From sequence record NC_024786.1: DNA of 64,000 bases; one strand, given 5' to 3'. Position numbers and translations under genes: made by a program. Position 1 is the stretch's first letter. Each line of letters opens with the position of its first letter. The notes beneath the pieces are model-generated. The model was not told the DNA's origin. It searched no databases and saw only the letters and a list, made by a program, of their open reading frames with translations. The stretch comes from Escherichia phage vB_EcoP_PhAPEC5. Shown piece after piece: positions 19,282-20,773 of the stretch.

Positions 19282-20261
19282 TGAAGATAACCAACAACCA
19301 TGATGTCTCGCTGGCCCTGGCTGTATGGCTATTACATGACGAATATGATTACGTAGACAATCCTAAGTACCTGTCTGCTACTACATTGCTTAAGCCTATT
19401 AAGCAAATCGTCATGAAGCATCGTGTAGATTTTAGTGACCAGTCAATTGATGTTATGGATTTCGTCTCCACATCAATGGGTACTGGCTTACATGACTCTA
19501 TTGAGAAAGCCTGGAAGCTAGGTCATAAGACTGCATTGAAGAAGCTAGGTTATCCTCAGCGAGTAATTGATGCAGTAGTCATTAACCCAACCAAAGCAGA
19601 CTTTGCTGCTAACCCTGACCTTATCCCAATCTACATTGAACAGCGTGGAACCAAGGTAGTTAAGGGTTGGACCATCGGTGGTAAGTTTGACATCGTAACG
19701 GAAGGTCTGTTGCAAGACTTCAAGTCTACCTCAACCTATTCTTGGGTTGCTGGTTCCCGTGATGATGAACACAAGATGCAAGGCAGCTTGTACCGTTGGA
19801 TTCACAACGACATCATTACTGAGGATGTAATTCGTATTAACTACATCTTCACCGACTTCATGAAACACATGGCTAATAGCAATCCAAACTATCCTGCTAA
19901 TCGTATTATGCATAAGGATATTCCGTTGCTGTCTGCTGAGAAGACTGAACGTTGGGTGGAAGAGAAGATTCACTTCATCGAAAAGTACTGGGATGCACCT
20001 GAAGAGGAAATCCCTGAATGTACTGACGAGGAGTTGTGGCGAACAGAGCCACAGTTCAAATACTTCTCTGATGCTTCTAAGGTAGATGTACCTGGAGCCA
20101 GAAGTACCAAAAACTTTGACGATATGGCATCTGCCCGTATCTTCATGGCTGAGAAAGGTGGCAAGGGTGCTATCAAGGTTGTGGAGGGGCAGGTTAAAAG
20201 ATGTCTTTACTGCCCTGTCGCATCTATTTGCAAACAAAGAGAGAGATATTTTCCATCATGA
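19281..20261 (+). CDS. PD-(D/E)XK-type nuclease with C-terminal Cys cluster (putative)
   Basis: Candidate D...DFK motif (GKFDIVTEGLLQDFKST) and C-terminal cysteines (PECTD...CLYCPVASIC) reminiscent of Cas4/RecB-family Fe-S nucleases. Confidence 0.35.
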   Translation: MKITNNHDVSLALAVWLLHDEYDYVDNPKYLSATTLLKPIKQIVMKHRVDFSDQSIDVMDFVSTSMGTGLHDSIEKAWKLGHKTALKKLGYPQRVIDAVVINPTKADFAANPDLIPIYIEQRGTKVVKGWTIGGKFDIVTEGLLQDFKSTSTYSWVAGSRDDEHKMQGSLYRWIHNDIITEDVIRINYIFTDFMKHMANSNPNYPANRIMHKDIPLLSAEKTERWVEEKIHFIEKYWDAPEEEIPECTDEELWRTEPQFKYFSDASKVDVPGARSTKNFDDMASARIFMAEKGGKGAIKVVEGQVKRCLYCPVASICKQRERYFPS

Positions 20262-20773
20262 TTAAGCTGACTCAGCAACGGCTAAAAGAGTTGCTGCATT
20301 ATGACCCACTTACTGGGATATTTACTCGCCGCATCTCCCTCAGTAACCGAACACCTGTCGGTAGTGTTGCTGGGTCGCTCAATAACAGTGACGGTTATCT
20401 CTACATAACAGTTGATGCCAAACGGGAAGCTGCCCATAGGTTAGCTTGGTTGTACGTGTACGGTATGTGGCCTACTGGTTTAATAGACCATAAAGACACC
20501 ATACGTCACCACAACTGGATAGACAATCTAAGGGAAGCGGATAAAAGCACCAATGGTGCTAACCGTGGACTGAATAAAAACAACACCAGTGGTTTTATGG
20601 GTGTTACTAAGTTCAGGGGTAACTACTTAGCCAAAATCAAAGTAAACCGTCAATCAATTCATTTAGGTGTATTCCTGAAAGCAATTGAAGCAGCCAAAGC
20701 ATATGACTTAGCTGCCGTAAAATACTTCGGAGAATATGCCGTCACTAATAAGAGCATAGGATTAATCAAATGA
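20258..20773 (+). CDS. HNH-AP2 homing endonuclease (free-standing)
   Basis: HNH_3-like region (GYLYITVDAKREAAHRLAWLYVYGMWPTGLIDHKDTIRHHNWIDNLREA) plus AP2-like DNA-binding domain (SGFMGVTKFRGNYLAKIKV...AAKAYDLAAVKYFGEYAVTN); ATG 20258 overlaps upstream stop; tracked ORF starts upstream in the same frame. Confidence 0.8.
   Translation: MIKLTQQRLKELLHYDPLTGIFTRRISLSNRTPVGSVAGSLNNSDGYLYITVDAKREAAHRLAWLYVYGMWPTGLIDHKDTIRHHNWIDNLREADKSTNGANRGLNKNNTSGFMGVTKFRGNYLAKIKVNRQSIHLGVFLKAIEAAKAYDLAAVKYFGEYAVTNKSIGLIK

Follow-up and report, generated by a model that had tools for sequence, protein, structure and literature searches.

The question raised by this locus is why a small reading frame stands between two replication genes that adjoin in related phages, and whether it is a selfish element or serves the phage. 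We refer to the stretch of DNA that was analysed, 64,000 nucleotides of Escherichia phage vB_EcoP_PhAPEC5 (NC_024786.1), as the window; it belongs to the N4-like coliphages of the genus Gamaleyavirus, and the gene, its parts and its two flanking genes lie on the + strand. The ORF list and the sequence place a frame encoding 171 aa at 20258..20773 (stop included). On its upstream side is a PD-(D/E)XK-type exonuclease gene (N4 gp42-like, 19281..20261), recognised by its match to PHROG 2139 (E 7e-152) and by annotations in relatives, and on its downstream side a DNA primase gene (N4 gp43-like, 20770..22923), recognised by PHROG 2135 and Pfam PriCT_1. An earlier note, made from the sequence alone, had taken the ORF for a free-standing homing endonuclease gene (HEG) of the HNH-AP2 type that parts two neighbours in the N4 gene order. 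The neighbours do adjoin directly in PhAPEC7, in G7C and in most N4-like contigs of IMG/VR, and in the HEG-less relatives the gp42 and gp43 homologues share an ATGA overlap. The reading frame itself, its HNH_3 and PHROG 99 matches, its many homologues and its absence from PhAPEC7, G7C and most relatives lead us to conclude that it is very probably a free-standing HNH-AP2 HEG resident at the exonuclease-primase junction of N4-like phages.

Both ends of the gene overlap its neighbours by ATGA, as the earlier note had read them. At the left junction (20258..20261; ccatcATGAtt) the exonuclease stop TGA at 20259-20261 overlaps the HEG ATG at 20258-20260, and the identical ATGA couples the exonuclease straight to the primase in PhAPEC7. 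At the right junction (20770..20773; atcaaATGAgt) the HEG stop TGA at 20771-20773 overlaps the primase ATG at 20770-20772, an ATGA that the junction alignment shows to be recreated by a 512-bp insert. The final HEG codons (I-G-L-I-K) contain a Shine-Dalgarno-like AGGA at 20758..20761, 8 nt 5' of the primase ATG, which would keep the primase translated; (T/C)TAGGA within LGL codons likewise stands ahead of the next gene in two other HEGs, G7C gp41.1 and that of one IMG/VR contig, L073. A longer version of the ORF with 190 residues, starting from an ATG at 20201, was rejected because this ATG is not conserved, the other carriers having T or C at 20201, while the start corresponding to 20258 is used by all homologues. 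The gene has a frame, a start codon and a stop codon of its own and lies outside any intron or intein, so that "free-standing" describes it correctly, and a scan of the whole window with Rfam at gathering thresholds returned one tRNA only and no RNA family match at the HEG. N4-type middle genes are not known to be transcribed from sigma-70 promoters. Compositional foreignness was also considered and rejected: the G+C content of the HEG is 42.8% compared with 43.5-45.2% in the flanks, and by this similarity the element is an old resident of the phage group rather than a recent arrival from outside.

The encoded protein has the features expected of a homing nuclease. The match of residues 58-100 to Pfam HNH_3 (PF13392) has an E of 1.1e-10 and scores 41.5 bits, where the cut-off is 24.8, and PHROG 99, "HNH endonuclease", matches with an E of 6.5e-64. 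Three regions can be distinguished. An N-terminal beta-strand domain (residues 1-57, 20258..20428) is the likely counterpart of the DNA-contacting N-terminal domain of I-HmuI. It is followed by the beta-beta-alpha-metal nuclease core (residues 58-102, 20429..20563), delimited by HNH_3, by conservation and by alignment to I-HmuI, and then by a putative DNA-binding AP2-type domain of three strands and one helix (residues ~112-165, 20591..20752). The motif D77-H78 (20486-20491), N90 (20525-20527) and N99 (20552-20554) is intact, and the core has the beta-beta-alpha-metal fold. Among 101 homologues H78, R92 and N99 are invariant and D77, N86, N90 and N102 are at least 90% conserved, which disposes of the suspicion that the nuclease might be degenerate; the D-H...N...N residues are likewise kept in all HEG lineages at this junction. 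A profile of the HNH-AP2 family matches I-HmuI (PDB 1u3e) with an E of 3e-7, and the DH...NLR...N residues are aligned.

The two-domain assignment made from sequence alone held outright for HNH_3, whereas the AP2 part failed the Pfam threshold and stood by other means. Pfam AP2 (PF00847) scored 13.4 bits with the whole protein and 16.6 bits with the C-terminal 67 residues, against a threshold of 33.3. Plant AP2 structures are nevertheless matched by phmmer (WRI1, E 1.5e-7) and by the family profile (WRI1 6.6e-12, TEM1 1.4e-7, ERF096 1.2e-4), and many homologues about 50% identical to the HEG protein do have a Pfam AP2 match. In an AlphaFold model with a mean pLDDT of 94.7 the C-terminal three-stranded antiparallel sheet, packed on a single helix, can be superposed on AP2 domains of known structure. 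In spite of the low Pfam score, the structural model and the profile searches thus confirm a C-terminal AP2 domain. An N-terminal HNH and a C-terminal AP2 in a single polypeptide are the hallmark of the HNH-AP2 HEG family, which, with 2,317 phage records at E<=1e-10, is a very common one; 680 homologues of the protein itself were found at E<=1e-5.

The comparison with insertion-free relatives that the earlier note had called for yields an empty site. PhAPEC7, the nearest relative of the window, is without the HEG, and a single ATGA is common to its exonuclease and primase genes; the insertion is therefore exactly 512 bp. In PhAPEC7 and G7C the junction reads ...TTTTCCATCATGAGTATTGACC..., and the window has the same flanks plus 512 bp; the sequence across the HEG-less junction of these two phages is ...TTTTCCATCATGAGTATTGACCTTACCGGAGTAGTGCACCATCC.... 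Over 18800-20026 window and PhAPEC7 are without a mismatch (1,227 identical bases). The gene is present in only 7 of 79 related phage records, equivalent to five phages, and it is thus far from being carried by all relatives. Homologues that are 98, 80, 69, 64 and 62% identical all occupy the exonuclease-primase junction in ever more distant N4-like phages, and the gene is conserved at full length in six or more phages. A search of IMG/VR with the HEG protein found only paralogues of 33-52% identity (G7C, ECBP1 gp41.1-type and others) and not the gene's own lineage; the informative IMG/VR carriers were found by looking up contigs that encode homologues. A degenerate-pattern scan of IMG/VR for the primase HHPAIEE motif gave 52 loci, including about a dozen chance matches, and was filtered by translation; among these contigs primase codons 1-16 (M-S-I-D-L-T-G-x-x-H-H-P-A-I-E-E) are strongly conserved in N4-like phages.

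Taken by itself, the pair of window and PhAPEC7 appears to fit a gain in the window lineage and a loss in the PhAPEC7 lineage equally well. The gene was also compared with its surroundings in divergence. Relative to Escherichia phages PBM-2 and vB_EcoP-ZQ2 (ZQ2) and to the HEG-carrying contig L026, the window HEG has a dS of 0.018-0.036 while the flanking genes have 0.13-0.49. The reverse is seen with L033, which has a second allele: here dS is 1.25 for the HEG and 0.23-0.46 for the flanks, and judged by this divergence the second allele is far older than its own flanks. In deep comparisons the HEG is under purifying selection, with dN/dS of 0.11-0.15.

Mismatches between window and PhAPEC7 cluster around the insertion: of 31, 29 fall in the 231 bp on its upstream side and the 491 bp on its downstream side (binomial P ~1e-13). 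Upstream, the window departs from PhAPEC7 by 11 synonymous differences at the 3' end of the exonuclease gene (20027..20257), and the tract from 20027 to ~20819 matches L026. One contig without the HEG, L071, has this upstream haplotype too, so the upstream tract may reflect ordinary mosaicism rather than co-conversion. Downstream, eight substitutions relative to PhAPEC7 fall in primase codons 3-9 (20778..20796). Six substitutions at 20787-20796, in codons 6-9 (T-G-I-S versus T-G-V-V/T), are perfectly linked to the HEG in a sample of seven carrier and seven non-carrier Gamaleyavirus-type sequences. This cluster could be the target of the endonuclease or a site of immunity, or else a tract that was co-converted. 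Between HEG alleles the linked Ile-Ser codons differ synonymously, so that the amino acids stay unchanged; such a pattern would fit a primase allele inherited together with the HEG no less than an immunity site acting at the nucleotide level. To judge from these comparisons, the incongruent divergence and the six linked primase substitutions indicate homing-type spread.

An unlikely alternative is that the gene is a vertically inherited resident which no longer homes and has been lost in many lineages, the observed pattern arising by deletions and by ordinary homologous recombination between co-infecting Gamaleyaviruses. These genomes are indeed heavily mosaic, with identities between window and PhAPEC7 of 86-100% by segment, and heavy mosaicism is likewise described in bioRxiv 10.1101/542787. 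Truncated relatives exist as well (U1G gp54 lacks the AP2 helix, EC1-UPM gp45 the N-terminus), the G+C content resembles that of the flanks, and in deep comparisons HEG divergence is roughly proportional to flank divergence. This explanation has difficulty with an allele at dS 0.02-0.04 in backbones whose flanks are at 0.13-0.49, and with the second allele, which shows the opposite imbalance. Ordinary recombination could account for this only if crossovers had fallen repeatedly no more than tens of bases from the HEG ends. Every loss would need to leave precisely one ATGA behind, and the catalytic motif has remained intact under purifying selection.

We regard it as quite improbable that the HNH-AP2 protein has been domesticated and serves the phage by excluding competing phages or satellites, as a DNA-binding regulator or as a replication-associated nickase. 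The low dN/dS shows that the protein is maintained, translation of the gene is coupled to that of its neighbours in the replication module, and HEG domains have been co-opted in conflicts between phages and satellites (PMC10448857). Most close relatives, however, do without the gene, among them one whose flanks are identical, and it is therefore dispensable. In addition, three unrelated HNH lineages occupy this same junction in different phages, a pattern characteristic of selfish elements that colonise a target site and not of a host function. Since exclusion of a competitor is what a homing endonuclease does in a co-infection, this alternative in part overlaps the homing explanation. That the ORF arose by chance or is mis-annotated is hardly credible: its small size and the frequency of ATGA overlaps in phage genomes are all that speak for it, and it is refuted by the 680 homologues, the confident structural model, purifying selection and the full-length conservation.

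For the homing endonuclease that we favour, we propose the following mechanism. The protein would be a monomeric I-HmuI-like nuclease. It would recognise an extended DNA site through its N-terminal beta domain and its C-terminal AP2 domain, and its single HNH centre would nick or cut that site with H78 as general base and D77 and N99 as metal ligands. During co-infection with a HEG-less phage, it would cut at or beside the uninterrupted exonuclease-stop/primase-start sequence, which lies in an essential and highly conserved region. Repair of the break from the HEG-carrying genome would copy the gene, together with a few tens to hundreds of flank bases, into the recipient. The carrier genome would be doubly protected, by the recoding of primase codons 6-9 and by the 512 bp that separate the two halves of its site. 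The phage should also pay little for the insertion, the ATGA stop/start overlap being rebuilt on both sides and an AGGA ribosome-binding motif being supplied for the primase. Cleavage activity, the exact target, nicking as against a double-strand cut, and spread driven by the nuclease rather than by ordinary recombination are points that we infer. Our literature search found neither a biochemical nor a genetic test of cleavage or homing for the protein or a close homologue and no paper that discusses the gene; a structural paper on Shigella virus Moo19 makes no mention of the HNH protein.

Other occupants of the junction suggest a more tentative extension. U1G gp54, EC1-UPM gp47 and the L073 ORF are other HNH lineages at the same junction, only 35-39% identical to the window HEG. 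The exonuclease-stop/primase-start ATGA of N4-like phages may possibly serve as a common landing pad, colonised independently by three or more HNH(-AP2) lineages that are only distantly related, with the HEG-linked recoding of primase codons 6-9 (Gly-Ile-Ser versus Gly-Val-Val or Gly-Val-Thr) as the immunity determinant. In the junctions of the gene's own lineage and of L073 both ATGA overlaps are rebuilt and the last codons provide an AGGA for the downstream essential gene; in the U1G/EC1-UPM lineage the downstream overlap is not rebuilt.

A second selfish element is present in the replication module. A 704-bp insertion in the DNA polymerase gene (~16898/16900-17603), which G7C and most relatives lack, contains an HNH_3 ORF (16992-17525) unrelated to the HNH-AP2 gene. 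The match of the insertion to a group I intron is below threshold (38 bits versus 50, E 9e-8), and we infer that the insertion splices; alternatively, the polymerase may be produced in the form of two polypeptides, which is reported for phage 10Gb. The HNH-AP2 family profile does not match the HNH_3 ORF in the polymerase insertion; the two endonucleases are therefore independent, in line with the earlier proposal of two separate selfish endonucleases in this module.

Counterparts of the gene are already known. Escherichia phages PBM-2 (PBM2_47), PBM-3, UE-M6 and vB_EcoP-ZQ2 (gp52) and Shigella virus Moo19 (gp58) have the same 171-aa gene at the same site with double ATGA overlaps, annotated "HNH homing endonuclease"; nucleotide identity to the window HEG is 98.5-99.0% in the four Escherichia phages and 80% in Moo19. 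While the backbone of the window is PhAPEC7-like, the flanking genes of these five phages differ by 6-11%, and we found no experimental study of their HEGs in the literature. I-HmuI is an intron-encoded HNH nicking endonuclease of Bacillus phage SPO1; it is 22% identical to the window protein, which is free-standing and ends in AP2, whereas I-HmuI lies inside a group I intron and ends in a helix-turn-helix. The free-standing HEGs of T4-like phages (Seg, Mob) also lie beside or between conserved essential genes, are patchily distributed and co-convert flanking markers as they spread during co-infection. The Seg enzymes are of the GIY-YIG type, Mob proteins are HNH proteins without AP2, and both differ from the window HEG in the family of their host phage. 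An N-terminal HNH and a C-terminal AP2 are likewise combined in the "IPA-HNH" HEGs that Barth et al. (2023, PMC10448857) describe in Vibrio phage ICP1; they are too divergent for the Pfam HNH_3 profile, of which the window HEG is a canonical member, and differ in target site and host phage family. The same paper summarises HEG biology, cites Magnani, Sjolander and Hake (2004, Plant Cell) for the HNH-AP2 family, and regards phage HNH-AP2 genes as mobile elements from which the AP2 domains of plants evolved. Within the same replication module, G7C gp41.1 and EC1-UPM gp45 are paralogous HNH-AP2 genes between gp41 and the exonuclease; gp41.1, one gene upstream, is 53% identical to the window HEG, and like the latter gp41.1 and the L073 ORF end in ATGA overlaps and the LGL/AGGA C-terminal motif. 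Several copies of the gp41.1 type and of the other lineages are truncated. A preprint on the G7C population mentions variable HEG-related ORFs only in general terms (bioRxiv 10.1101/542787).

The gene is thus an ordinary phage element with annotated copies in sister genomes, and as HNH-AP2 HEGs are abundant in phages and this one is already labelled there, it has little significance of its own. It does account for some of the mosaicism seen in the replication module of Gamaleyavirus, and it flags the conserved 5' end of the primase gene as a probable endonuclease target. PhAPEC7, with identical flanks and without the gene, and PBM-2 and ZQ2, with the same allele in diverged backbones, form a natural pair for a homing experiment. 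The element is of relevance to therapeutic coliphage cocktails of this genus because HEG-adjacent markers would be exchanged preferentially. If the junction is indeed a shared landing pad, the locus would be a natural system for studying how an AP2 domain comes to be specific for its target and how HEGs compete when they share one site.

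The homing endonuclease gene (HEG), a 171-residue ORF at 20258-20773 on the (+) strand, lies between genes for a 326-aa PD-(D/E)XK-type exonuclease (19281-20261; PHROG 2139, E 7e-152) and a 717-aa DNA primase (20770-22923; PHROG 2135, Pfam PriCT_1). Its ATG overlaps the exonuclease TGA and its TGA overlaps the primase ATG, in both cases as ATGA, so that the extent of the ORF and the overlaps at both ends are exactly as the earlier note had described them. A longer frame opening at an ATG at 20201, offered by the mechanical ORF list, was rejected as this codon is not conserved in other carriers; all HEG homologues start at the 20258 position. 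The HEG protein matched Pfam HNH_3 with 41.5 bits (cut-off 24.8) and PHROG 99, 'HNH endonuclease', with E 6.5e-64. The gene has a G+C content of 42.8%, matching its flanks, and its final codons (I-G-L-I-K) contain an AGGA 8 nt ahead of the primase ATG.

Of the 79 phage records that the HEG region matches, almost all are E. coli or Shigella phages of the genus Gamaleyavirus, the G7C-like Schitoviridae. The closest relative, PhAPEC7, is ~95% identical over the window and 100% identical across 17.5-20.0 kb, and in its annotation the genes flanking the junction are homologues of N4 gp42 and gp43 that overlap by one ATGA. When the two junctions are aligned, the same flanks are found with 512 bp inserted in the window and an ATGA now at either end. 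The single ATGA in PhAPEC7 and the insertion in the window show that the HEG separates genes that are adjacent in the N4 order, as the earlier note had stated, and that an empty site exists with which the occupied one can be compared. In a haplotype-independent scan of IMG/VR keyed on the conserved primase motif HHPAIEE, the exonuclease ends within ~30 nt of the primase start in most N4-like contigs. Far from being carried by all relatives, the HEG is present in only 7 of the 79 records, representing five phages (PBM-2, PBM-3, UE-M6 and ZQ2 at 98.5–99% identity, Moo19 at 80%). The nearest homologues in a large protein collection (98, 80, 69, 64 and 62% identity) belong to increasingly distant N4-like phages, and all of them occupy the exonuclease-primase junction. 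As shown by this shared position down to 62% identity, the HEG lineage is site-specific and old.

Within an alignment of 101 HEG protein sequences H78, R92 and N99 never vary, D77, N86, N90 and N102 show conservation of 90% or more, and none of the HEG lineages seen at this locus has lost these HNH residues. The catalytic motif is therefore not degenerate. The AP2 domain is the sole element of the original description that failed a curated test: where Pfam AP2 sets a cut-off of 33.3 bits, the whole protein scores 13.4 and a C-terminal fragment 16.6. It is nevertheless backed by several other comparisons. Plant AP2 proteins rank top in a phmmer search of PDB sequences (WRI1, E 1.5e-7), and a profile built from 101 homologues matches plant AP2 proteins more strongly still (WRI1, E 6.6e-12; TEM1, E 1.4e-7). 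In the confident AlphaFold model (mean pLDDT 94.7), residues 116-160 form three strands and a long helix, and roughly half of the homologues ~50% identical to the HEG protein have a precomputed PF00847 match. We conclude that the AP2 domain is real despite its sub-threshold Pfam score.

Synonymous divergence between the window and PBM-2, ZQ2 and the HEG-carrying metagenomic contig L026 is 0.018-0.036 in the HEG, compared with 0.16-0.26 in the exonuclease and 0.13-0.49 in the primase gene. Because these sites are synonymous, protein-level constraint cannot explain the low HEG values: one young HEG allele resides in older, diverged backbones. Comparison with contig L033 (dS 1.25 in the HEG, 0.23 in the exonuclease, 0.46 in the primase) shows an old, distinct HEG allele in a similar backbone. 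Over deep comparisons, dN/dS is 0.11-0.15 for the HEG and 0.03-0.06 for the neighbouring genes, indicating that the protein is maintained, less tightly than its neighbours. Divergence from PhAPEC7 is concentrated around the insertion: there are no mismatches over 18800-20026, 11 in 20027-20225 (all synonymous) before the insertion, 8 in 20778-20796 and 10 further to 21264, followed by near-identity. This places 29 of 31 mismatches within 722 of 2,429 aligned bases (binomial P ~1e-13). From 20027 to ~20819 the window agrees with L026 and not with PhAPEC7, and among carriers of the young allele common identity beyond the HEG reaches only ~33 bp on its upstream side and 32-80 bp on its downstream side. 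At six positions in primase codons 6-9 (20787-20796), 7/7 carriers differ from 7/7 HEG-less Gamaleyavirus-type sequences: the carriers read ACT GGC ATC AGT (T-G-I-S), the HEG-less sequences ACC GGA GTA GTG or ...GTC ACT (T-G-V-V or T-G-V-T).

These sequences reveal repeated transfer of the HEG with very short flanks, of which the nuclease is the putative cause. An ordinary double crossover beside the HEG leaves a footprint identical to that of a homing event. The comparison with PhAPEC7 is compatible with a change in either lineage, and the upstream haplotype of the window also occurs in the HEG-less contig L071. The linked Ile-Ser codons vary synonymously among HEG alleles (ATC AGT, ATA AGC, ATA AGT) and may reflect a hitch-hiking primase allele rather than an immunity site at the nucleotide level; a carrier may be protected from its own enzyme simply because the insertion divides a site across the ATGA.

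Another HNH(-AP2) lineage, 35–37% identical to the HEG protein, occupies the same junction in U1G (gp54, L005 2492-2929) and EC1-UPM (gp47), where the flanking ends are more divergent. A third lineage, in the IMG/VR contig L073 (11759-12268), has an ATGA at either end and is 37% identical to the HEG protein and 38–39% to the U1G/EC1-UPM lineage. Closer paralogues (53%), G7C gp41.1 and EC1-UPM gp45, are sited one gene upstream; the two EC1-UPM ORFs span 2475-2963 and 1112-1504 of L006. The AP2 helix is missing from U1G gp54 and the N-terminal domain from EC1-UPM gp45, so that these two look like decaying copies. Invasion followed by decay, as a stage in the life of a HEG, can thus be seen in relatives of the window, whose own copy is full-length. 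In G7C (L004), ~65 bp ahead of gp41.1 repeat the exonuclease 5' end almost exactly (1520-1590; window counterpart 19281-19345), and gp41.1 is followed by a recoded exonuclease 5' end (2085-2150) that begins the real gene, indicating that gp41.1 inserted within the first ~22 codons together with its own diverged target copy.

The DNA polymerase gene of the window carries a 704-bp insertion relative to G7C at ~16898/16900-17603, found among matching phage records only in PhAPEC7 and Moonfish. It contains an ORF (16992-17525) with an HNH_3 match (E 2.3e-7) and an N-terminal helix-turn-helix-like region. The HNH-AP2 family profile fails to pick up this ORF; the two nucleases are therefore independent, as first proposed for the replication module. 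The intron status of the insertion is less firm: the Rfam group I match is sub-threshold (38 bits vs 50, E 9e-8), and the boundaries would allow the 5' exon to end in U (16897) and the intron in G (17603). In the G7C-like phage 10Gb, a g39 insertion is reported not to have spliced and to have given two polymerase polypeptides (bioRxiv 10.1101/542787). By this precedent the polymerase of the window may also be made in two pieces, and an in-frame ATG at 17589 could be the start of the C-terminal one.

Other polymorphisms were observed in the window and its relatives. At window 23308-23313, PhAPEC7 carries an insertion of 800 bp (its 30407-31206) that its annotation labels a putative intron with a small endonuclease ORF; this insertion is absent from the window, where the gp44-like AAA ATPase gene (22980-23732, 250 aa) is intact, making this a third mobile-element polymorphism of the same module. 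Bp4 (KJ135004.2/NC_024142.2) and Uz-1 (OP312987.1) each have two annotated 'DNA primase' CDSs, with an HNH gene under the primase-region match in Uz-1, which suggests a further insertion splitting the primase gene. The 3' part of the gp41-like ORF 18814-19281 (window 19000-19300) is a divergence hot spot, with 45–83% identity in phages otherwise >90% identical and a shorter, differently annotated gene in ZQ2 and Moo19. The virion RNA polymerase ORF (28995-39728, (-) strand) encodes 3,577 aa vs ~3,450 aa in PhAPEC7, with ~363 extra in-frame bases at 36399-36809 (-) in place of 48 bp. A single tRNA gene lies at 27453-27526 (+; Rfam 62.4 bits), and the annotation of PhAPEC7 likewise has a tRNA in the equivalent region (35085-35163).

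PMC10448857 summarises HEG biology and, citing Magnani et al. 2004, treats HNH plus AP2 as a recognised HEG architecture. HNH-AP2 homologues occur in 2,317 phage records, and GenBank already labels copies 98–99% identical at the same site as 'HNH homing endonuclease'; no paper discussing this HEG was found in the literature searched. The finding is correct and well supported, but ordinary.

A mechanism can be proposed by analogy with I-HmuI, a monomeric nicking enzyme, and with the free-standing HEGs of T-even phages. During mixed infection the N-terminal beta domain and the AP2 domain of the enzyme would bind a HEG-less genome where the exonuclease end runs uninterrupted into the primase start. 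Few sequences are better conserved in N4-like phages than the first 16 primase codons (M-(S)-I-D-L-T-G-x-x-H-H-P-A-I-E-E), which makes the primase start a sensible target. H78, together with a metal ion that has D77 and N99 as ligands, would cut one or both strands; for a single HNH centre, nicking would be no less likely than a double-strand cut. Recombinational repair would copy the HEG and a short flank out of the carrier genome. The cost to the host phage would be minimised, as both stop/start overlaps are rebuilt and an AGGA is supplied before the primase ATG. In the G7C gp41.1 and L073 HEGs, the conserved C-terminal L-G-L codons hold a similar (T/C)TAGGA ahead of the downstream gene, and this motif may provide a ribosome-binding site within the HEG. 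These codons belong to a T-N-K-x-L-G-L-(I/L) C-terminus (window 20750-20769; L004 ~2065-2084; L073 ~12245-12264) that is conserved among N4-phage HEG lineages and not in the wider family, the (T/C)TAGGA lying 8-12 nt before the downstream ATG. It is possible, though on balance we think it rather unlikely, that several HNH-AP2 lineages compete for the ATGA junction as a landing pad, the recoding of primase codons 6-9 acting as an immunity determinant.
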